Part shown: positions 5,224-20,654 of the stretch, in pieces
Layout: every line of letters begins with the position of its first letter
How positions within the stretch are numbered: position 1 is the stretch's first letter
Assembly (NCBI GenBank): GCA_040387835.1
Contig: JAZKCZ010000002.1
Coordinates: 581,818 to 645,817 of the forward strand
Direction of reading: 5' to 3'
DNA from: Myxococcota bacterium
Lineage (GTDB): Bacteria; Myxococcota; UBA727; JABDBI01
DNA: 64,000 nucleotides
Program-made: the position numbers and the translations under genes
Notes under the pieces: model-generated
The model's input: the letters and a program-made list of their open reading frames with translations, nothing else
The model's database searches: none
What the model was told of the DNA's origin: nothing

Positions 5224-6726
5224 ATGCATTCAAATTTTGTTGCTATTTTGGACTATGGTTCTCAGACGACTCAACTAATTGGCCGTCGGCTTCGAGAGTT
5301 TAAAGTATTCTCTGAAATTTTCCCTTACCATATCGACATTGAAACGCTGAAGGCTCATGCGCCTAAGGCGATTATTTTGTCGGGCGGGCCTAATTCGGCC
5401 CATTCTAAAGACGCGTTTCCGCTGCCAGAAGGATTGCTTGAATTAGGCTTGCCAATTTTAGGTATCTGTTATGGCGCTCAGATTTTGACCCAGACATTGG
5501 GCGGTCTCGTATCCCCATCGGAGCATCACGAGTATGGGCGATCGTTTATTAGTTTGCAGCGAACTTCATTGCTATTTAAAGGGCTTGATCATCAAGAAGT
5601 CTGGATGAGCCACGGTGATCAGATTGCTCGCCTACCAGAAGGTTTTGTCACTTTGGCATCAACGCCAACTTGCCCTCATGCAGGCATTGCTTGTGAAGAG
5701 CGCAAAATCTATGGCGTTCAGTTCCACCCTGAAGTGACGCACACCGTTCATGGTCGCCAGATTCTGACGAACTTCTTGTTTGAAATCGCCAAAGTGAAGC
5801 CTACTTACGAGCTTTCTGATTTCCTAAGTGAAGAAACAGCCCGCATTAAAGAACAAGTGGGAGACGCCCAGGTGATTATGGCGCTTTCAGGTGGGGTTGA
5901 CTCAATGGTCGCGGCAAAACTGGTTCAAAATGCCATTGGCGACCAGCTTATCCCGATTTATGTGAACCATGGTTTGCATCGCCTTGGCGAAATTGCGGAA
6001 ATTGAAGCCGTTAAACCACAAATCGTCGATGCCAGAGCACGCTTTTTTGAAGGGCTGAAAGGCGTTACTGACCCGGAAGAAAAGCGCAAAGTTATCGGCC
6101 GTTTGTTTGTAGAGATTTTCGATGAAGAATCGAAGAAATTCCCCAATGTACAATTTTTAGGGCAAGGCACGATTTACCCCGATGTAATCGAATCCCCAAG
6201 CAGAGACGGTGGCCCGAGCGACGGCATTAAAACACACCACAATGTGGGTGGCCTGCCTGAAATCATGAACTTGAAGTTGGTTGAACCGCTGCGAACTCTA
6301 TTTAAAGACGAAGTGCGCGATTTGGGCAAATTGCTCGGCCTGCCTGAGAAATCCCTAGCACGCCAACCTTTTCCTGGGCCAGGGTTTGCGATTCGCATCC
6401 TAGGCGAAGTGACTGAGCAGCGCTGCGAAATTCTTGCTCAAGCAGATGCCATCGTACGCACCGAAATCGGTGGTGGCTATTGGCAGTTCTTTGCGATCTT
6501 ACTCCCCGTCAAAAGCGTTGGCGTCATGGGTGATGGCCGGCGCTATGGCGAAACCATTTGCGTCAGGTGCATCGAAAGCGAAGACGGCATGAGCGCTGAC
6601 TGGGCTTATTTGCCACGAGAAATTTTGAGCCGCATATCCAACCGGATCATTAACGAAGTTGATGGCATTACCCGGGTTGTTTATGATATCAGCTCCAAGC
6701 CACCAGCAACCATTGAGTGGGAATGA
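5224..6726 (+). CDS. guaA: GMP synthase (glutamine-hydrolysing)
   Basis: N-terminal class-I glutamine amidotransferase (ILDYGSQTTQLIGRRLRE, GICYGAQ). ATP-PPase SGGVDS motif. Conserved C-terminal GMPS domain ending TIEWE. Confidence 0.92.
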   Translation: MHSNFVAILDYGSQTTQLIGRRLREFKVFSEIFPYHIDIETLKAHAPKAIILSGGPNSAHSKDAFPLPEGLLELGLPILGICYGAQILTQTLGGLVSPSEHHEYGRSFISLQRTSLLFKGLDHQEVWMSHGDQIARLPEGFVTLASTPTCPHAGIACEERKIYGVQFHPEVTHTVHGRQILTNFLFEIAKVKPTYELSDFLSEETARIKEQVGDAQVIMALSGGVDSMVAAKLVQNAIGDQLIPIYVNHGLHRLGEIAEIEAVKPQIVDARARFFEGLKGVTDPEEKRKVIGRLFVEIFDEESKKFPNVQFLGQGTIYPDVIESPSRDGGPSDGIKTHHNVGGLPEIMNLKLVEPLRTLFKDEVRDLGKLLGLPEKSLARQPFPGPGFAIRILGEVTEQRCEILAQADAIVRTEIGGGYWQFFAILLPVKSVGVMGDGRRYGETICVRCIESEDGMSADWAYLPREILSRISNRIINEVDGITRVVYDISSKPPATIEWE

Positions 6727-7957: not shown

Positions 7958-9078
7958 AATTCGAAATATTACACCAATCTAAAAAATCTCGTGCTCGCGT
8001 TGGGCGCATCCATACCGCACATGGTGTGATCGATACGCCTAACTTTGTAGCAGTTGGCACCAACGGTTCTTTGAAGGCTTTGGACAGCAAGACTGTTGAA
8101 GCTTTGGGCATTCAGCTGATGTTTTGCAATACTTACCATCTGATGCTTCAGCCCGGATCTAAACGGGTTGCTGAAGCCGGGGGCTTGCACAAGTTTATGA
8201 ATCGCTCGATGCCGATCATTACGGATTCGGGTGGGTTTCAGGTATTTAGCTTGGCTTATGGTTCGGTTGCCAGTGAGCTCAAAAGCCAAGGGACCAAGCA
8301 AATAGACGGCAGCGTTCTGAAGATCAACGAAGAAGGCGTTTTGTTTAGGTCCTATCGCAATGGCGATAAAGTCTTTTTGACGGCTGAGACTTCCATTCAG
8401 GCGCAAAAAGATTTGGGCGCGGACATCATGATCAGCTTTGATGAACTGCCACCTTATCATATGGATCAGACCGCGTTGATCGACTCCATGGAGCGCACCC
8501 ATCGTTGGGAAAAGCGGTCGCTGGATGAGCATTTGAAAGACCCGCGGCATCAGGCACTGTATGCGGTGATCCACGGTGGGGTTGATGTTGAACTTCGCAA
8601 GAAAAGCTGTGCTTATCTGGGTAATCTGCCCTTTGATGGCTTTGGCATTGGTGGCAGCTTAGGCAAAAATCGCCCTGAAATGATCAATATGTTGACCGAG
8701 GTCATGCCTTTTGTCCCGCCGGAGCGACCGAATCACCTTTTAGGGATCGGGGATTTGCCATCGATAAGAGACTGTGTGCCACTGGGTGTGGATACTTTTG
8801 ATAGCTCGTTCCCGACCAAAGCCGCCCGGCATGGGACGTTGATGACCATGGACAGCACCCATTTTAATATCACCCGGGGCAAGCATGCGGATAATCTTGG
8901 GCCGATGGTGGCTGATTGCGAGTGTTACACCTGTCAGAATTATTCAGCGGCCTATATTCATCATTTGTTCAAAGCCCACGAACCGACCGTCATGACCCTA
9001 GCCAGTATTCACAATGTGCATATCATGGTAAAGATGATGGCTCGTTATCGACAGCAAATTTTGGACGACCAGATTTAA
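7954..9078 (+). CDS. tgt: queuine tRNA-ribosyltransferase
   Basis: ARVGRIHTAHGVIDTPNFVAVGT, MFCNTYHL and a C-terminal zinc site (CECYTCQNYSAAYIHHL) are all diagnostic of Tgt. Confidence 0.9.
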   Translation: MKFEILHQSKKSRARVGRIHTAHGVIDTPNFVAVGTNGSLKALDSKTVEALGIQLMFCNTYHLMLQPGSKRVAEAGGLHKFMNRSMPIITDSGGFQVFSLAYGSVASELKSQGTKQIDGSVLKINEEGVLFRSYRNGDKVFLTAETSIQAQKDLGADIMISFDELPPYHMDQTALIDSMERTHRWEKRSLDEHLKDPRHQALYAVIHGGVDVELRKKSCAYLGNLPFDGFGIGGSLGKNRPEMINMLTEVMPFVPPERPNHLLGIGDLPSIRDCVPLGVDTFDSSFPTKAARHGTLMTMDSTHFNITRGKHADNLGPMVADCECYTCQNYSAAYIHHLFKAHEPTVMTLASIHNVHIMVKMMARYRQQILDDQI

Positions 9079-9091
9079 CCACGGAGAATAC

Positions 9092-9691
9092 ATGTACAGC
9101 CTGATTCAAAAACCAGCCCCTGATTTTAATGCCGAAGCTGTGATGGCTAACGGTGAATTTTCAAAAATTTCGCTTTCTAGCTTTAAAGACAAAAAATATG
9201 TCTGCTTATTTTTCTACCCACTAGATTTCACTTTCGTATGCCCATCTGAGATCATTTCATTTTCTCACCGCGCAAAAGATTTTGAAGCGCGCCAAACCCA
9301 AATTTTAGGTGTATCGGTTGATTCCAAATTTAGCCATTACGCCTGGAGACAAACGCCCGTGGACAACGGCGGAATTGGTGCGATTGAATTCCCGTTAATT
9401 TCCGACATCACCAAGGAAATTGCTCGTGATTATGGCGTACTAGTTGAAGATGCAGTCGCTTTGCGCGGAACATTCTTAATCGATATGGCTGGCGTTGTCC
9501 GTCACGCAACTTTGAACGATCTGCCACTGGGCCGAAATGTTGATGAAACCCTTCGCATGATCGATGCTTTGCAACACACTGAAAAATATGGCGAAGTATG
9601 TCCAGCAGGCTGGAGAAAAGGTGATACCGCGATGAAGGCTAATACAGCCGGCGTAGCATCCTATCTGAAAGAAAACGCTGCAAACCTATAA
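9092..9691 (+). CDS. ahpC: typical 2-Cys peroxiredoxin (AhpC/Prx1 family)
   Basis: Peroxidatic FTFVCPSEI and resolving VCPAGW motifs. 199 aa. Confidence 0.85.
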   Translation: MYSLIQKPAPDFNAEAVMANGEFSKISLSSFKDKKYVCLFFYPLDFTFVCPSEIISFSHRAKDFEARQTQILGVSVDSKFSHYAWRQTPVDNGGIGAIEFPLISDITKEIARDYGVLVEDAVALRGTFLIDMAGVVRHATLNDLPLGRNVDETLRMIDALQHTEKYGEVCPAGWRKGDTAMKANTAGVASYLKENAANL

Positions 9692-9709
9692 AAGCTAGGT
9701 TTCCAAAGT

Positions 9710-9752
9710 CCCCCTCCAGATCCTGGAGAGGGATTTAGGGTGAGGTCCCCTC
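9710..9752. repeat. palindromic element copy (ccccctccag atc ctggagaggg + atttagggtgagg) between convergent genes; possible bidirectional terminator
   Basis: Perfect 10-bp inverted repeat at 9710-9732 followed by atttagggtgaggtcccctc. Sits exactly between the ahpC stop (9691) and the stop of the minus-strand gene (9753). Confidence 0.75.
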
Positions 9753-10388
9753 TTAGCTGTTGCTTGATGCAGCTGGTGCACTAACGCCACCTTCTACCAC
9801 AACATTCACAGGAACAGCCACTGGAGCGCCACCACCTGGTGTTACAGGATTTGCAGGAGCTGCGGGTTCAGCGGGTGTTGCAGGTGTTGGGCTCGGTGCA
9901 GCGCCTGGGCCTACTGGAGCAGCGGGTGCTACAGGTCCTGGCGTCAAGGATACGCCGCCAGCTGGCATTGGAGCGATTGCTGAGTCTTTAGACACAATCG
10001 CGCCTTTAGCAGCAACTTCACCTTTGGAAGCCACTTGGGATTGTGATGAAACTTGCTGAGCTTTCGATTCGTGATGAAACAGAGCTTCAATTTTGCTGCC
10101 TAGATCTTGAAACGCAGCTTGAATAGCATGTAGATGAGGATGAGACACCTTCACTTCTACAGTTCCTTGCATTTGAGCTGAACCAGCGGCCATAGGAGCC
10201 ACAGGCGATTTCATCGCTTGCATCGGTGATTTAGGTTCAAAATGATCTTTAGCCGCAACTTTGCTTTCGAGTTTGGCTTCTGCTTTCGCAGGGGCAGCTT
10301 GTGTCGCAACTTGGCTTGCGCCTTTTGCAGCTTCCTGTGCAACTACAGTTTGGGATTTTGCAGGGATTACCATATCTTTTCCGCCCAT
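9753..10388 (-). CDS. low-complexity Ala/Pro/Gln/Lys-rich protein (hypothetical), paralog of the downstream gene
   Basis: 211-aa ORF starting MGGKDM. Strong RBS (AGGAGATAAAGAAC then ATG). Pro/Ala-rich C-terminus. Shares the MGG start and an A/K/Q/T/S-rich composition with 10511..10900. Confidence 0.55.
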   Translation of the reverse strand: MGGKDMVIPAKSQTVVAQEAAKGASQVATQAAPAKAEAKLESKVAAKDHFEPKSPMQAMKSPVAPMAAGSAQMQGTVEVKVSHPHLHAIQAAFQDLGSKIEALFHHESKAQQVSSQSQVASKGEVAAKGAIVSKDSAIAPMPAGGVSLTPGPVAPAAPVGPGAAPSPTPATPAEPAAPANPVTPGGGAPVAVPVNVVVEGGVSAPAASSNS

Positions 10389-11053: not shown

Positions 11054-12259
11054 ATGAGTCGAATATTTTACATAGTTTTGATTTTTCTGAGCGCGTGCGC
11101 GCCTCAGTTTAATTCAGAGCCATCTGAAATTCATTACAAGATCACGCCCCAGGCAAATGGATTTTTGGTGGAGATCACGCACGACGCGTCCGTTGCCCCG
11201 ACCATGACTTCGCCAGCTTACTATTCGACTTTTTCTCTGCAATCCAGCGGAAATGACCATACCGTCCGCTATTTTATCAAGCCCGCTCGCAGACAGGCAC
11301 ATGGCCCTTCGGATACCCAAATAGATCTATCTGAAGGTTTTTTCAAAACCTCAGGATATGGCTTAATCGCCTGCTTGGGCCGGAAATGGGATGAAGCCAA
11401 ATCAGTTCGCATCACCTGGCAAGCTCCAAAACCCTGGCGGTTTGCCAATTCCTTTTCAGCCGGAGCTACGCAGCAATCGTTTAAAGCGAGCTGTTATCAA
11501 CTTCAAAACGCTCTATATGCTGGCGGAACCAACCTGCGCTTCTACGAAACCCCTTTAGCTACCGTGGCCATTTCTAATAACGCTTCCGAAAAGGTTAATA
11601 AGAAATTAATTGCGACAGTTAAAAAGAACATGGTGAAAGTTAAAGATTTCTGGGGCGAGCTTGACGATGCCAAAGAATATTATTTTGTTTTGATTCATCC
11701 AGCGAATGGCAACGAGCACGGTGGTACCGCGCAATTTCAGTCTTTTCAATTAGCGCTTGCTGATTTTACGCCTTCTGACGCTTCTAAAGAGTTAGATCAT
11801 CTGATTGCGCATGAATATTTCCATCAATGGAACGGCATTAAAATCAACGTACCAGTGAGCACACAGCATGAAGTCCGCTGGTTCGTGGAAGGGTTCACGG
11901 ACTATTTTGCCTTTTCCATCTCAGGGCACACAGCAAACTTCAGCAATAGGTTCGAGAATGTCAGCCTTAAAAATTATGTCTCTGACATGAAAACTCATTT
12001 TGATGTTCCGTACATACAAGGCCGAAAAATCGCGGCTGATATGGATAAAGCAATCCAAAATTATTCAAGTCGTAAGCTTGAGCATTTGATGCGCCATATT
12101 GTTAGGCGATCGCAAGCAGATCCGCTATTTTACTTAACGCAGGCAAGCATCTTGGGCGTCATTTGCGAAGGCAACTATATGAACTGTGACCAAGCACACC
12201 AACTGATAGAAAACCATGTCAACCTAGGCCATCCATTTGTCACGGCGTCTCGAGATTAA
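11054..12259 (+). CDS. gluzincin zinc metallopeptidase lipoprotein (M1/M61-like)
   Basis: Lipoprotein signal (LIFLSAC). HEYFHQWNG HExxHxW motif followed by WFVEGFTDY, resembling the M1 NEGFA motif. Confidence 0.6.
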   Translation: MSRIFYIVLIFLSACAPQFNSEPSEIHYKITPQANGFLVEITHDASVAPTMTSPAYYSTFSLQSSGNDHTVRYFIKPARRQAHGPSDTQIDLSEGFFKTSGYGLIACLGRKWDEAKSVRITWQAPKPWRFANSFSAGATQQSFKASCYQLQNALYAGGTNLRFYETPLATVAISNNASEKVNKKLIATVKKNMVKVKDFWGELDDAKEYYFVLIHPANGNEHGGTAQFQSFQLALADFTPSDASKELDHLIAHEYFHQWNGIKINVPVSTQHEVRWFVEGFTDYFAFSISGHTANFSNRFENVSLKNYVSDMKTHFDVPYIQGRKIAADMDKAIQNYSSRKLEHLMRHIVRRSQADPLFYLTQASILGVICEGNYMNCDQAHQLIENHVNLGHPFVTASRD

Positions 12260-13778
12260 GCATCAAATCTTCAGCTTCCTTGTCGGTCAGCAAATTAGAC
12301 TCCAGAGAATCTCGGTAAGAAATTCGAGCAATTTGCTTGAGTTGCTTTTCGATCGCAGTCAAACGAAGGCCAGCGGCTTGCTGAAATGAAGCTTCTGCTT
12401 GCCTCGCTTCCATGCCTTTCAAAATTTCCACGCGCTCCGCTTGAAGCGTTGCGATCAGGGCTTTAGCAGCTGGCAAATCTTGAGATGACAACTTAGAAAT
12501 AGCTTCCAGCTGGGCTTTGATTGCTTTGAGACGTGCCAAGCTTTTGCTTAAGAAAGAAACCGCTTCGGTCCTAATAGGCATCATTTTTAGCCAACGCAGC
12601 AACATGCCCAGGGTTGAGCCCTGGAAAACAACCGACATCACCACCACCCCGAAAGTCATGGCGATTAAAGTTTGCTTAAACTCAATGCTATCAGGCAGCG
12701 ACAATGCCAAAACCATAGACAATGCCCCCCGCAGGCCTGCCCACCAAATCACTGTCGCGCTTTTGCCATCGAGCGGCTGGCCCATCCGGCGCAAAATCGG
12801 CAGTGGCAAATAAACAGAAGCGGCTCTAGCAGCCAAGACAGCAAAATAGGCCATGATAATCACAGGTATATTGCTCATGAGCAAAGGCACATTGACTTCA
12901 AGCCCCATCATTAAGAAAACAATGCTGCTGACAAAGAACGCCACGTATTCCCAAAAGCTGGTCACGGCTACACGGGTGTTGGGGTTAAAACCCTTTTGAT
13001 AACCAAAGTTACCCACAAAAAGACCAGCCATCACAGTCGCCAAAATGCCCGACATGTGAATCTTTTCGGCCACCAAATACGACCCATACGCCGTCACGGT
13101 GGTGATCGCGATGGAAATCAAATGATCCTCTGCTAAAGTGATGATGAAGCTGGCAAAAAGACCAAACATCGATCCAATCAGCAGCCCACCCATCGAATAA
13201 CTAATCAGCTGAAGCATGCTCTCAGACCACTCGAAGTGTCCCAGGCTCAACGCCGTCAAGACTGCATGGTAGAAAATAATCGCCGTTCCATCGTTAAATA
13301 AGCTTTCGCCTTCAATCAAAAGCGCCAAACGCCTATCAACCCCCAGCTGACGCAGCAGGCTGATCACAGAAACTGGATCGGTCGCTGCAATAATCGTGCC
13401 GAACAACAGAAAGTGTAAAAAACCATAGGCGTGAGACAAGCCAAAGATCGAAAAGCCGAGCCATAAAGCCAAAGCCGTTAAAACCGCAGCCAAAAGGACG
13501 CCAGGCAATGCAAATGTGGCAATGGTCGGCGAGAATTGCCTAAGTTCCCGAGCTGGAAAATGGATGGCTGCTTCAAATAATAATGCTGGCAGAAATACTG
13601 TCATCATTAATTCAGGCGTTAATTTTAAGTTGGGAACAATGTTTAACGCATTAATGCCAAGCCCAACCAATACCAAGGAAACGGTATAAGGAACTTTAAC
13701 TCGAGAGGCCACGATTCCTACAATGGTGGCCACCATCATCAGCGAGACCAGAGCCTCGATCGTTTCAAATTCTGCCAT
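12240..13778 (-). CDS. Na+/H+ antiporter, CPA1/NhaP family
   Basis: 512 aa, about 11 TM Na_H_exchanger core plus a C-terminal cytoplasmic coiled-coil tail. Confidence 0.8.
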   Translation of the reverse strand: MAEFETIEALVSLMMVATIVGIVASRVKVPYTVSLVLVGLGINALNIVPNLKLTPELMMTVFLPALLFEAAIHFPARELRQFSPTIATFALPGVLLAAVLTALALWLGFSIFGLSHAYGFLHFLLFGTIIAATDPVSVISLLRQLGVDRRLALLIEGESLFNDGTAIIFYHAVLTALSLGHFEWSESMLQLISYSMGGLLIGSMFGLFASFIITLAEDHLISIAITTVTAYGSYLVAEKIHMSGILATVMAGLFVGNFGYQKGFNPNTRVAVTSFWEYVAFFVSSIVFLMMGLEVNVPLLMSNIPVIIMAYFAVLAARAASVYLPLPILRRMGQPLDGKSATVIWWAGLRGALSMVLALSLPDSIEFKQTLIAMTFGVVVMSVVFQGSTLGMLLRWLKMMPIRTEAVSFLSKSLARLKAIKAQLEAISKLSSQDLPAAKALIATLQAERVEILKGMEARQAEASFQQAAGLRLTAIEKQLKQIARISYRDSLESNLLTDKEAEDLMLNLETP

Positions 13779-15436: not shown

Positions 15437-15700
15437 ATGAGATGGTTGGTAATAGTGTTAATGTTAGCAGGACTGGCTTGCAGCCCCTGCAGAAATTTGG
15501 CCGAAAAAATTTGTGATTGCAGGACCAGCCAGAGCGATGCAACAGCGTGTAAGAAGAATTTAGACTTCGCCAAGCAGCATAAATACTTTGGGCAAGCCGT
15601 CGATGAAAATAGATGCCAAGAAATATTAGATAGCCCAGATTGTACCTGCGAAGCTATTTTATCGAATCAATTTGAGAAATGTGGATTTACCCGAAAATGA
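15437..15700 (+). CDS. small Cys-rich lipoprotein (hypothetical)
   Basis: ORF 15401..15700. The Met at 15437 gives MRWLVIVLMLAGLACS, a lipobox-like signal. 9 Cys. The stop overlaps the pssA start (ATGA). Confidence 0.4.
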   Translation: MRWLVIVLMLAGLACSPCRNLAEKICDCRTSQSDATACKKNLDFAKQHKYFGQAVDENRCQEILDSPDCTCEAILSNQFEKCGFTRK

Positions 15701-16449
15701 GCCGCTTTAAATTAAGAAATGCCCTGTTTATTTTGCCTAATGCTTTTACCGTATCATCCATATTCTGCGGTATGTACGCCATCTGGCATGGCCTAACCGG
15801 CAACACACCTGAAACCCTTTATGAATCCGCCATTGCAGTATTTTTTGCCGGATTCTTCGATCTATTTGATGGTCGCGTTGCTCGCATGACCAAAACGCAA
15901 AGCGAATTCGGCGTCCAGCTCGATTCACTCGCTGATGTGATCAGCTTTGGCATTGCCCCTGCACTGCTAGTGTACAAATGGGCCCTAGAACCACTCGAAG
16001 CTGTTGGGTTTATCGGCGTATTTTTTTACGCTGCCTGCGGCGCCATCAGGCTCGCCAGATTCAACGTGATGGCTGCCCGGGACAATGGCGCTTCAAGCTA
16101 TTTTATCGGCCTGCCCATTCCTTTGGCCGCATCCGTCATGATCGCTTCACTGATCGCACATCTCAAATTATTTGAAGGCGATGCCGTTAAGCATCCATTA
16201 TGGATTTTGTGGCTGGTAATTATCTTAGGCGTGTTGATGGTTAGCACGGTTCCTTACTGGACTTTCAAAAACTACAAATTTAACCGCCAAACCGTGATGC
16301 TCGGGCTGGTTTTCGTTTTGATGGGCTGGTGGTTTAGGCTGCATTATCCCACAAGTTTAGGCATCGTGACCCTCCTCAGTATTTATATTCTGGCTGGATT
16401 TTCACGTTTTATTTGGATTCGTGTATACTCCAAATCAAAGGAGCGTTAA
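15697..16449 (+). CDS. pssA: CDP-diacylglycerol--serine O-phosphatidyltransferase (CDP-alcohol phosphatidyltransferase family)
   Basis: DGRVAR...G.QLDSLAD CDP-OH transferase signature. Multi-TM. ATGA-coupled to the upstream ORF. Confidence 0.8.
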   Translation: MSRFKLRNALFILPNAFTVSSIFCGMYAIWHGLTGNTPETLYESAIAVFFAGFFDLFDGRVARMTKTQSEFGVQLDSLADVISFGIAPALLVYKWALEPLEAVGFIGVFFYAACGAIRLARFNVMAARDNGASSYFIGLPIPLAASVMIASLIAHLKLFEGDAVKHPLWILWLVIILGVLMVSTVPYWTFKNYKFNRQTVMLGLVFVLMGWWFRLHYPTSLGIVTLLSIYILAGFSRFIWIRVYSKSKER

Positions 16450-16452
16450 GCG

Positions 16453-16737
16453 ATGTACAACTCGAAATGCAAATGTCCCCACCATTCAATATCTTTCATT
16501 TTTGTGGCCCTGATTGGGTTAACCTGGTTGCTATTTGAATTGGGAACCATCACCCTTCATACCGCCAATTTGGCCTGGCCAATCTTGCTAATCTTGATCG
16601 GTCTTCAAAAAGCTTTTGGTGGCATGTGCAATTGCTGCATGAAGTCCGGTAGCTGCAGTTGCGGTCGAAGTGACTGCAAATGCTGCTCGAAATCTAGCTG
16701 CAGCACGGATCCGAACCAAATTCCGTCGCAGCGCTAA
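16453..16737 (+). CDS. small membrane protein with Cys-rich C-terminal tail (hypothetical)
   Basis: AAGGAG RBS 7 nt upstream. Two TM segments, then MCNCCMKSGSCSCGRSDCKCCSKSSC. The 3' 150 nt overlap the end of the convergent 16588..17583 gene, so the true extent is uncertain. Confidence 0.45.
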   Translation: MYNSKCKCPHHSISFIFVALIGLTWLLFELGTITLHTANLAWPILLILIGLQKAFGGMCNCCMKSGSCSCGRSDCKCCSKSSCSTDPNQIPSQR

Positions 16738-17583
16738 GATCGGTCTCGCCAGATAGTAAGCGAAAAACAGATAATCTGGCAAAGCCAAGTCCTGAAAGTC
16801 GTTCACCCTTGGGATGAACAAACTTAAACAGAACTTGGCTTTATTTTTTAGTTTCGCTCGTAAGTTCAGCCGATGCACCCAAGCGTTGAGCTGCCAAACG
16901 TAATTGTCATTGCGAGCCAAGCGAAGCAATCCAGGATCCTGGATTGCCGCGTCGCTTCGCGCCTCGCAATGACGAGTTAGACCTTCTTTTAAAAAGCGCG
17001 TTAAATCATAATTCTCAGCGACTTTCCAAAGCAGATGCCAGTCCAAATTGCCATACCGCTCCAATAGAAACTTGATATCTAAGCCCCATTGCCCCCTCTG
17101 CCACAAAGACTCACTGCCATGGGCGCACAAATATAACAGGTTATATTCAGGCGAAAGCTGCTTGATATTTTGGTCTCCCACTCGGATTTCCTGAAGCGGG
17201 ACATCAAACACCGAAAAACACCCTATATCTTGAAATAAGCGCCAGTGCAGTTCTAAGCAAATCTGCTTTCTAGGGTGCCAATAAACAAAGTCTTTGCTGT
17301 GCTTCAAATGAGATTTCCGTTGCGCAGGACTAAACAAAAACCGTTCATAACCTTCCGTGCACAAAATATCATCTGCCAAGAATATATCTTGTGGCCGAAT
17401 GACAAAATCAAGGTCGTTAGAACTCCGTGCCCCTAAATCACCATAAAGCTCCAATGCCAACAGCGGACCTTTAATAGAAACCAACGGTATCGATTTAGCT
17501 TCAAATAGCCGCACCAAACGCACCAGTTCTGAAACCTGATTTAAAGCGAAAAGCGCTTTTACGGACATACATCCTCGAAGCAT
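16588..17583 (-). CDS. nucleotidyltransferase-fold protein of the type found in lasso/RiPP clusters (pol-beta-like NTase)
   Basis: GDLGARSSNDLD matches the G-x-R-x(n)-D-x-D minimal NTase motif. About 330 aa. Overlaps the B2 stop, so likely translationally coupled. Confidence 0.6.
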   Translation of the reverse strand: MLRGCMSVKALFALNQVSELVRLVRLFEAKSIPLVSIKGPLLALELYGDLGARSSNDLDFVIRPQDIFLADDILCTEGYERFLFSPAQRKSHLKHSKDFVYWHPRKQICLELHWRLFQDIGCFSVFDVPLQEIRVGDQNIKQLSPEYNLLYLCAHGSESLWQRGQWGLDIKFLLERYGNLDWHLLWKVAENYDLTRFLKEGLTRHCEARSDAAIQDPGLLRLARNDNYVWQLNAWVHRLNLRAKLKNKAKFCLSLFIPRVNDFQDLALPDYLFFAYYLARPILALRRNLVRIRAAARFRAAFAVTSTATAATGLHAAIAHATKSFLKTDQD

Positions 17584-17957
17584 TCAAGCGCCACGTAGCC
17601 GACCGCATCTTCATGTTCCAGCCACGCATGAGCGGTAAAGACCTGATGCTCGCGTTTAACGCCTAAATAAAGTTTATTAGCGAGTCGCCGCCGCCGCAGC
17701 ATCAACTTGGTTGCCAAGGTTTGCTCGAGACACTTTGCCTGCCAAGGCACTTGTAGAGAAACTCGCTGCACCCAGCTGCGAATCCATTGATTAACGGCAG
17801 GGTTTTCGATTTTGGCTTTACCACGCAACTTGTTAGCAATGGACTGGAAGGGCATTCGCAATAAAATCAATCTCGCTAAAATCAGACAGCAGACTGCTTC
17901 AACAACAAGCCCTGCTCGTTTAACGCGTTTAAAAAAATCAAAACTTCTTCTTGGCAC
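17559..17957 (-). CDS. lasso-peptide-type leader peptidase B2 (transglutaminase-like Cys protease)
   Basis: AKCLEQTLATKLMLRRRRL...LGV...FTAHAWLEHEDAVGYVALE matches the B2 signature (catalytic Cys, HAW[VL]E, Asp). 132 aa. Confidence 0.75.
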   Translation of the reverse strand: MPRRSFDFFKRVKRAGLVVEAVCCLILARLILLRMPFQSIANKLRGKAKIENPAVNQWIRSWVQRVSLQVPWQAKCLEQTLATKLMLRRRRLANKLYLGVKREHQVFTAHAWLEHEDAVGYVALECFEDVCP

Positions 17958-18169
17958 TTAAGTGGTGTTACCTCGAATTCCTGGACCAGGCGGTCACATA
18001 GTGATGCCACGGTCCGGGATTCTTCAAGCAACTCCCAAATACGCCTTCCAACGGAATTAACGCCATAATATCTGCCTGTTTGTATACTGAGCATCACCAA
18101 GTCTTCATCAAACGAAGCGCTGATCAGGTCGGAGTTTCTGATGATTCGTTCGTTCAATGCGATGGTCAT
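17882..18169 (-). CDS. PqqD-like RiPP recognition element protein (lasso B1-like); alternative upstream start at 18211
   Basis: ISASFDEDLVMLSIQTGRYYGVNSVGRRIWELLEESRTVASLCDRLVQEFEV is PqqD-family-like. A start at M15 (18169) gives 95 aa, the canonical size. Confidence 0.7.
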   Translation of the reverse strand: MTIALNERIIRNSDLISASFDEDLVMLSIQTGRYYGVNSVGRRIWELLEESRTVASLCDRLVQEFEVTPLKCQEEVLIFLNALNEQGLLLKQSAV

Positions 18170-18469
18170 ATTACCTGCTATACGCTTCGGGCCTAATTTG
18201 GTGAATGACATTAGAGATCGCCAAACCAGCGAAACAACCCATTCCCGATTTGCAATAGGAAAACACCCTACGAAATGCCCACCGACTAAATGTCAAAACT
18301 TAAGGCTCCATTCTCAACGTAGGTTGATTCGTTGGTCAATTCGTACTAGAGCCACCGGTTTTTTTGATCAAGAAAGTTTGACACGGATTTGTAAAAATCC
18401 CCGTGTTAGTTTGCAATTGCATTCTGACAATTAATCCCTTAAAATACTTCGGGCAATTGGAGCTCATAT

Positions 18470-19486
18470 ATGCATTATCGACACTATCTTGCCGGAATAT
18501 TTCTATTTGCTTCTATAACGGCTCAAGCTCAGATACTAAAGATGCGAGCGCCAGAAATATGGACACCTGGCCTTCGCCCAGCACAACAAGCGCTCAGCCA
18601 AATTACAAAAAGCGTTGCTTCAGCAGAGACGATTAAGCGCAATGCTGCCGAACGAGAGAGCGGCATGTCTGTTCTCGGCAAAGAGAGATCTTTAGGCTCA
18701 AACGTCAGAAAACACCGACAACAAATTAAAACATTGCGCTCGGAGCTGAGTGAAGCGTTGCGAGATGTACGCGTCAACGATCCTCGGTCGGCCAATGTGG
18801 TACGGAGCGAACTATACGATTTATTGAACAAGAAGCCAGCAGACGAACAAGGCGAAGAGTCATCTCTGTTCGGCCAGCAAGATGTGCCAGGAACTTTTTG
18901 TGATGTATCGGCTCAAGCTCAGAGTATTCAAGGCCCAGTTGCTTGGACAGCACCCACGGCCGGTACTGCAGCTGCTGGCGCAGGCGGTCCATCGCCGCAA
19001 CTTGGGCCTGCTCCGCAGGCACCTGCACCTCTATCAGCGATAGTTAACCCCACCCCAACTCTTGCTGTTGCCGCTGAGCCTACGGTTCGCACTCAGCCGA
19101 TGACAGTGTCGCCTTTGGCGCGTGTGGGAGATTGGTACCAAGGTCCTAGAGAATCAAAAACTGTTCCTGCTCTAGAGTGGGAGCTCGGGCGAATGGGCAC
19201 TACTAAAATGACCTTTGAAGACGCGCAAGCCTATGCAGCATCGCGTGCACATGCTGACTGGCGTTTGCCAACGATTTGGGAATTAGAAGCTTTGTATCAA
19301 CAGCAGAATGTTTTAGGCAGTGATTTGGATACCGAATGGTTTTGGTCAGATACAGCGGTCGTTAGCCGTCCCAGAGCTCATTGGTTCGTCCACTTCAGCG
19401 GTGAACATGTGTACAGCAGTCGCCTGCTCATCCGTAGTCGCGTTCGGTTGGTTCGCTCACGAGACGGGTGGTTTATTGGTCTATAA
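18470..19486 (+). CDS. secreted protein with C-terminal DUF1566 (Lcl C-terminal-like) domain
   Basis: Signal peptide (LAGIFLFASITAQAQ). Pro/Ala-rich linker. C-terminal DWRLPTIWELEALY...WFWSDT...AHWFVHFSGEHVYS motif set typical of DUF1566. Confidence 0.6.
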   Translation: MHYRHYLAGIFLFASITAQAQILKMRAPEIWTPGLRPAQQALSQITKSVASAETIKRNAAERESGMSVLGKERSLGSNVRKHRQQIKTLRSELSEALRDVRVNDPRSANVVRSELYDLLNKKPADEQGEESSLFGQQDVPGTFCDVSAQAQSIQGPVAWTAPTAGTAAAGAGGPSPQLGPAPQAPAPLSAIVNPTPTLAVAAEPTVRTQPMTVSPLARVGDWYQGPRESKTVPALEWELGRMGTTKMTFEDAQAYAASRAHADWRLPTIWELEALYQQQNVLGSDLDTEWFWSDTAVVSRPRAHWFVHFSGEHVYSSRLLIRSRVRLVRSRDGWFIGL

Positions 19487-20545: not shown

Positions 20546-20654
20546 GTCGGTTCCCAGGCTCCAGGCTCAACAAAGCTTGATTCGTTGGCACCGGACCAAC
20601 GTGGCGTTGTGAAACAGACGATTTGCCCATGTTTTGTAACGAGTTAATGACGGG

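Follow-up and report, generated by a model that had tools for sequence, protein, structure and literature searches.

A maturation gene trio and a distant cyclase-precursor pair in a Myxococcota genome as the probable halves of a split lasso-peptide cluster

A 64,000-nucleotide (nt) stretch of a metagenome-assembled genome (MAG) of an uncultured Myxococcota bacterium (assembly GCA_040387835.1, contig JAZKCZ010000002.1), hereafter the window, carries three stacked minus-strand genes for the maturation of a peptide made by the ribosome and modified post-translationally (RiPP). Their products are a leader-binding PqqD-like protein of the RiPP recognition element (RRE) type (B1), a transglutaminase-like leader peptidase (B2) and an NTP_transf_5 nucleotidyltransferase resembling PsmN (N), as listed in Table 1. 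An initial annotation had proposed these identities, and hidden Markov model (HMM) searches with PF05402, PF13471 and PF14907 bore them out. The link that it had drawn to lasso-peptide biosynthesis was likewise upheld in an NCBIfam scan, in which B1 scored 77 bits against lasso_PqqD_Bac (NF033536; cut-off 80) and B2 scored 74 bits against lasso_biosyn_B2 (NF033537; cut-off 33). Non-lasso PqqD families (ScmD, GeoRSP and PQQ) were rejected for B1, as they gave weak, sub-threshold NCBIfam matches only. The flanking genes were also as first described, with pssA at 15679-16449 (TIGR00473, 131 bits) on one side and a divergent Lcl_C/DUF1566 gene (PF07603) at 18470-19486 on the other.

The overlaps between the three genes were confirmed. 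The out-of-frame overlap of B1 with B2 has counterparts of 112 nt and 97 nt in two relatives, L005 and L007, and the overlap of B2 with N measures 25 nt, falling to 10 nt with 17568 as the start of N. A programmed -1 frameshift joining B1 to B2 was considered, as a run of seven T in the window gives U_UUU_UUA leading from the B1 frame into the B2 frame; this run is absent from L005 and L007 and is probably due to chance. B1 is annotated at the National Center for Biotechnology Information (NCBI) as a protein of 109 amino acids (aa; MES2504338.1), and by comparison with relatives the ATG at 18169, giving 95 aa, is the likely start. B1 is 62-63% identical to the B1 proteins of L007 and of a further relative, L002. 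The NCBI version of B2 (MES2504337.1) is shorter, at 98 aa; the long form is supported because its N-terminal KRxxxAGxxxEAxxCL is kept in L005, L007 and a third relative, L022. Part of the Cys/HAWLE/Asp signature first read in B2 stood, in that Cys76 and His110 (in AHAWLE) were invariant across 11 B2 sequences; the acidic third residue could not be assigned.

The NCBI version of N (MES2504336.1) has 326 aa and starts at the ATG at 17568. Its identity to its nearest homologues is 45-61%, and these make up a small clade in which the NTP_transf_5 proteins are unusually short (285-312 aa); to the orthologues that adjoin cyclases it is 54-61%. N has the conserved residues G34, D52/D54 and E106, which constitute a G[SP]...DxD metal-binding motif and a third carboxylate. 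An Ala-rich C-terminal tail was considered as a sign of read-through or decay and rejected, since the orthologues P0002 and P0003 have the same tail. A search of PDB sequences with B2 and N returned nothing useful. An AlphaFold2 model of N (mean predicted local distance difference test score, 81.8) had its best PDB fold matches in LnuA and ANT(2'')-Ia, with MenT and FKRP also found; for LnuA, ANT(2'')-Ia and FKRP the Foldseek probability was 1.0, with E-values of 1.6e-4 to 1e-2 and identities of 11-20%. These four are enzymes that place nucleoside monophosphate or phospho-alditol groups on acceptors, and ANT(2'') (5cfs/4xje) is among the structural neighbours of PsmN as well (PMC6993621).

Table 1. 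Coordinates of the window features and of the precursor open reading frames (ORFs), with the gene order of lasso loci in relatives (C, cyclase; A, precursor).
Feature	Locus or source	Position	Strand	Remarks
B1, PqqD-like RRE leader-binding protein	window	17882..18211	minus	PF05402 E 7.6e-19, full domain
B2, transglutaminase-like lasso leader peptidase	window	17559..17957	minus	132 aa, GTG start; PF13471 E 4.4e-18
N, PsmN-like NTP_transf_5 nucleotidyltransferase	window	16588..17583	minus	PF14907 E 8e-39
Overlap of B1 3' end and B2 5' end	window	17882..17957	minus	76 nt, out of frame; both frames protein-conserved
Excision scar	window	17557..17577	minus	~20 nt; B2 homology stops at ...ALECF; N homology resumes at K(A)L..Q
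Region upstream of B1	window	18212..18469	minus	absent from relatives; sigma-70-like match 18339-18310
Precursor ORF	L019 (window genome)	11724-11843
Precursor ORF	L002	9925-10044
Precursor ORF	L005	~9955-10062
Precursor ORF	L008	78-185
Precursor ORF	L021	6444-6575
Precursor ORF	L022	9673-9792
Gene order	L005, GCA_964635635.1			B1-B2-C-A-N, all parts
Gene order	L022, JGI 3300045996			B1-B2-C-A-N, contig ends in N
Gene order	L024 + L008, GCA_964484075.1, two contigs			B2-C... and A-N; B2 onward is what was read in L024
Gene order	L023, GCA_016764955.1			B1-B2-C..., contig ends in C
Gene order	L007, SRR22388016			B1-B2-glycosyltransferase(TIGR04372)-247 aa-C-A-N
Gene order	L021, SRR22387936			B1-C-A-N, no B2 at that locus

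Relatives of the window genome share the gene neighbourhood of the window and carry a lasso cluster in it. Upstream lie genes for a pseudouridine synthase, a diacylglycerol kinase, an OmpA protein, a TPR protein and a PDDEXK_1 nuclease, and the genes common to most relatives downstream encode a small Cys-rich membrane protein, PssA, an M24 peptidase and a Na/H exchanger. The lasso cluster sits between PDDEXK_1 and the downstream genes. Five loci next to PDDEXK_1 establish its undivided order (L005, L007, L022, L023 and the pair L024 + L008); scans of genome and metagenome contigs for further relatives yielded only two more loci that are close and a few that are distant. The ancestral layout at the PDDEXK_1 site was B1-B2-C-A-N, and in the window the C-A pair has been removed cleanly from between B2 and N.

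The removal left a scar of about 20 nt. A tblastn alignment of the L007 B2 protein stops at 17577, after which the window B2 runs on for five extra codons and a stop. At this position relatives carry C (about 1.7 kb), A (0.12 kb) and the first ~12 codons of N. Alignment of the window N with its orthologues begins at Lys4 (NCBI numbering). The protein is without ~12 N-terminal residues that all of them have, the codons for which lie, in relatives, inside the precursor gene at its 3' end. The N gene of the window now starts at an ATG inside the end of B2. Together, the points at which the B2 and N alignments end indicate that C, A and the first N codons were lost in one piece. The junction is agreed by two assemblies, since an independent Logan assembly of the same sequencing run reproduced 17.8 kb across it at 100% identity.

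The initial annotation had noted that the window has no lasso cyclase, and this was confirmed: a tblastn search of the 64 kb with two clade cyclases found neither a cyclase nor a remnant of one (best E 0.31). The sole SGGxDS PP-loop in the window is in an ORF at 5224-6726, whose syntenic counterpart in L002 carries GMP_synt_C. The family precursor was also absent from the window, the best tblastn match (E 0.54) being at an unrelated place. Between 18212 and 18296 the only ORF is one of 41 aa with a TTG start (18171-18296), which has no similarity to the family precursor. Both this ORF and one of 43 aa at 18336-18467 were rejected as precursors, as they have neither the WxxPE...TE leader motif nor an Asp or Glu at core positions 7-9.

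The missing pair was found elsewhere on the same contig. A profile built from the L005 and L007 cyclases retrieved a protein of 586 aa (P0085; MES2504507.1) with an E-value of 3.5e-205, matches outside the clade beginning at 2e-138. The protein, which NCBI names 'MAG: asparagine synthase-related protein [Myxococcota bacterium]', has GATase and Asn_synthase domains and an SGGLDSS motif, and its best NCBIfam match is the lasso cyclase family NF033535 (249 bits, below the strict cut-off of 525). Like the trio (MES2504336 to MES2504338), it is encoded on a 929,517-bp contig from run SRR26324620. The DNA of its locus (L019) has no overlap with the window, and 171 protein accession numbers separate the two loci; assuming that accessions run in the order of the genes, C-A would lie about 170 genes from the trio. 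The cyclase gene is followed by, and overlaps at its 3' end, a gene for a 39-aa precursor, as in L007. The leader of this precursor reads MVEEEKKAWVAPEIILIADVKLETE, ending in WVAPEIILIADVKLETE, and is followed directly by the core FNFGGSGDLQLLGS, so that Thr stands at -2 and Asp at core position 8, a pattern that was found in seven loci. Its leader motif is shared with the precursors that stand beside B1 and B2 in relatives with an undivided cluster. No B1, B2 or N was found within 10 kb of C-A at this locus. C-A is flanked at 8761-9957 and 11840-13254 by a gene for a GloVer tandem-repeat protein (TIGR03803, 251 bits) and genes for two proteins whose N termini are of the prepilin type, and no recognisable RiPP function was found among the neighbours. 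Among the best 120 matches of a B2-profile search, the window B2 was the only one on the 929,517-bp contig. The trio had first been described as orphaned unless a lasso cyclase and a canonical precursor that pair with it lay elsewhere in the genome. Both were found, and that description no longer holds.

In relatives a short conserved ORF encodes the precursor and shares sequence with both neighbours, the 3' end of C and the 5' end of N. Automated gene prediction overlooked this ORF at L002 and L005 and assigned it differing coordinates at other loci. Its leader, ..KK(I/A)WxxPE(I/V)xx(I/V)xDVxx(D/E)TE, is arranged as is usual for lasso leaders, with an aromatic residue before xxPx, then an aliphatic residue, and Thr at -2. 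The core has 14 residues (for example, NAISSGGDIGLLQS) and Asp8, or 18 residues and Asp9 in L021. The C-terminal Ser is invariant (7/7 precursors), and core residue 1 is Asn in six relatives and Phe in the window genome.

A second genome of the clade, GCA_023248545.1, is divided as well. At its PDDEXK_1 site (L002, contig 2) the order is B1-A-N, with no B2 or C, identically in the NCBI, ENA and Logan assemblies. On contig 10 (L020) a B2-C pair was found with no A, B1 or N nearby. The L020 cyclase is 68% identical to that of L007, in line with N (70%) and B1 (72%), and so looks like a vertically inherited copy that has moved. Across the two loci each part occurs once, and the cut points differ from those in the window genome. 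Two splits at different points, each of which keeps every part that was looked for once, favour a working pathway in trans over decay and are the main argument for it.

Selection on the trio was judged by identity ratios, since the nearest relative is about 60% identical and synonymous sites would be saturated for an estimate of the ratio of nonsynonymous to synonymous substitution. Measured against pssA and the M24 peptidase gene, B1 and N of the window are no more diverged than those of the L002-L007 pair, and all window ORFs are intact with their catalytic motifs kept. Relaxed selection was rejected, as the ratios to flanking genes show no acceleration.

Collectively, these data suggest that a lasso-peptide cluster was split within this genome, that the trio forms its B1-B2-N half and that the pathway still runs in trans, a reading to which we assign a probability of roughly 60%. 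In such a pathway the 39-aa precursor would be translated at the distant locus, its WxxPE(I/V)...TE leader would be bound by B1, and B2 would use Cys76 and His110 to cleave after Thr(-2)-Glu(-1). The distant cyclase would then link the N terminus of Phe1 to Asp8, giving a macrolactam of 8 residues in the 14-residue core. The PsmN-like N is predicted to decorate the invariant C-terminal Ser, and it may act on the Ser directly because no kinase is present.

A bolder form of this proposal is that the split is functional and recurrent and that the kinase-less N directly O-nucleotidylates or phospho-glycosylates the C-terminal Ser of the 14-residue lasso, providing a bulky steric lock for a tail that would otherwise be too short to be held. 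We regard this extension as doubtful. Were it true, lasso tailoring would gain a new chemistry, and cluster-based mining would be shown to miss working lasso pathways.

Two observations in other genomes touch on the role of N. Between B2 and C, the L007 cluster carries a TIGR04372 glycosyltransferase gene (225 bits) and a gene for a 247-aa protein with no family match (787-2752), which hints at glycosylation in this lasso family. In a Nevskia sp. MAG (JALNYU010000032.1; L017, 8272-9960), a 562-aa ORF that adjoins a lasso cyclase combines Transglut_core3, the B2 domain, with NTP_transf_5, a fusion suggesting that B2 and N are functionally linked. Both accord with proteins that work closely together and that have a role in glycosylation.

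Several points weigh against a pathway that runs in trans. The single-copy count covers the loci that were read, and the MAG may hold a second B1/B2 set elsewhere. Pseudomycoidin can be obtained without B1 and B2 (PMC6993621), so that C-A might be self-sufficient. N is without its native start and its first ~12 codons; the acidic catalytic residue of B2 could not be placed, and the whole clade is without 8 residues after the catalytic His. The distant cyclase is 48% identical to that of L007, compared with the ~56-58% expected from other gene pairs, and the core in the window genome begins with Phe and not with the Asn of six relatives.

Some of these points feed the most serious alternative, in which the trio is a relic that is no longer needed: either the relocated C-A works alone or with other proteins, or the whole pathway is dying, and the three ORFs are simply not yet disabled. 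Besides the physical separation of the trio from C-A, the truncated 5' end of N, the divergence of the cyclase, the changed first core residue and the precedent for lasso formation independent of B proteins (PMC6993621), it can draw on L021, where B1-C-A-N stands with no B2 at that locus. Nevertheless, we consider it unlikely, given that the three ORFs are intact with their invariant residues kept and have not diverged faster than the flanking genes. In addition, the relocated precursor strongly keeps the leader motif that B1 should read, and two independent splits that each leave a complementary set with every part once would be rare under random loss.

A second alternative holds that the trio alone produces a leader-cleaved and nucleotidylated non-lasso RiPP from a precursor encoded near it. 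The lack of a cyclase in the window accords with this, and the B1-A-N arrangement of L002 makes action of B1 and N on a linear peptide conceivable. Against it, no precursor-like ORF lies near the trio, the sole family precursor found in this genome adjoins a lasso cyclase, and in every relative a cyclase accompanies these genes, be it at that locus or in another part of the genome; we therefore judge it very improbable. Decay and a non-lasso product were the two explanations offered initially for a trio taken to be orphaned, and this reading is not supported. A misassembled junction or a contig chimeric between two organisms is scarcely credible, even though the source is a MAG and the distance between the loci rests on the shared 929,517-bp contig and on accession order, as the Logan assembly of the run reproduces the B2/N junction and places C-A within a separate contig of 31.9 kb, and the analogous split in GCA_023248545.1 is common to its NCBI, ENA and Logan assemblies.

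The surroundings of the split cluster were also inspected. In relatives B1 lies within a few bases of PDDEXK_1. The window has a 2.3-kb insertion between the two, comprising the plus-strand Lcl_C gene and a gene for a 198-aa protein of unknown function, and bracketed by a 33-nt direct repeat (18303-18335 and 20556-20588; 85% identical, 2253 nt apart). The sigma-70-like match upstream of B1 overlaps the first copy of this repeat. A minus-strand ORF of 102 aa at 19490-19795 matches residues 33-89 of the adjoining Lcl_C protein with 49% identity over 57 aa, and could be a small paralogue or a paralogous fragment; at the DNA level no inverted repeat was seen. Downstream of the trio, a plus-strand ORF at 16453-16737 encodes a membrane protein of 94 aa whose C-terminal tail is very rich in Cys and which has a weak LiaF-TM match. 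This gene adjoins pssA in L002, L007 and L021 as well, and the Logan gene calls for the window stretch (L001) do not contain it. It overlaps the 3' end of N convergently by 150 nt, from which the Ala-rich tail of N can be read as the antisense reading of Cys codons.

The closest known systems are those for pseudomycoidin and paeninodin (psm and pade) of Bacillus and Paenibacillus. There too B1 and B2 are separate, an NTP_transf_5 gene comes immediately after them (psmB1-psmB2-psmN), Ser is the last residue of the precursor, and the leader has a KK.W..PE motif with Thr at -2. Searches with the window N retrieved five Paenibacillus genomes with the order C-A-K-B1-B2-N, in which K is Hpr_kinase_C-like and the precursor ends in Ser; the Hpr_kinase_C match is that of the Paenibacillus locus L012. 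PsmN is required for the addition of hexose to the phosphorylated C-terminal Ser of pseudomycoidin, a DxD mutant being inactive, and the bulky terminal group has been proposed to lock the short tail of the peptide in place (PMC6993621). It has been described as unresolved whether PsmN acts as a glycosyltransferase or as a true nucleotidyltransferase, and what it does in vitro (PMC9266682, PMC11912497). The clade described here differs in its B1-B2-C-A-N order, in its very short core, which has 14 aa and opens with Asn or Phe, and in an N that is without the N-terminal ~50-90 residues of usual family members. In two genomes the clade is, moreover, split across the genome. No HPr-kinase-like K gene was found in the window, in L019 or in the undivided clusters L005, L007 and L022, and the clade may thus offer a natural kinase-free test case for the function of PsmN-type nucleotidyltransferases.

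Compared with canonical contiguous split-B lasso clusters (A, B1, B2 and C), the system has the same four core functions, a leader with Thr at -2 and a core Asp8. B1/B2 overlaps of a few nucleotides are usual in those clusters; in this clade the overlap is 76-112 nt and out of frame, and in the window genome B1-B2 would stand about 170 genes from C-A. N resembles LnuA, ANT(2'')-Ia and FKRP in its predicted fold and its GS/DxD metal site. It differs from them in an extra C-terminal helical domain in the model and in its substrate, presumably the Ser of a peptide where theirs is an antibiotic or a glycan.

Some RiPP maturation genes are unclustered, as with lanthipeptide proteases that act in trans from loci outside their clusters (PMC8960859), and the present case is similar in that maturation enzymes would work in trans from a remote locus. 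It differs in that a generic protease is recruited there and a dedicated cluster has been cut in two here, setting the core cyclase and the precursor apart from the dedicated RRE protein and peptidase. We found no description of a split lasso cluster in the literature, which is not proof that none exists. RiPP mining with tools such as RODEO or antiSMASH is understood to assume neighbouring lasso core genes, and under that assumption the window genome would score as one 'orphan B1/B2' and one 'B-less cyclase'. The survival of the parts after two different cuts suggests that such pathways tolerate fragmentation, and some lasso loci of MAGs that appear incomplete may each be one half of a working system. 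Judged by its genes as a whole, the window genome would have a lasso system, one whose genes are not clustered and which is without the kinase of the psm/pade type. Placed among these systems, the family appears from its sequences to be a kinase-less, PsmN-bearing lasso system of an uncultured Myxococcota lineage, and its value would lie in recurrent complementary splitting.

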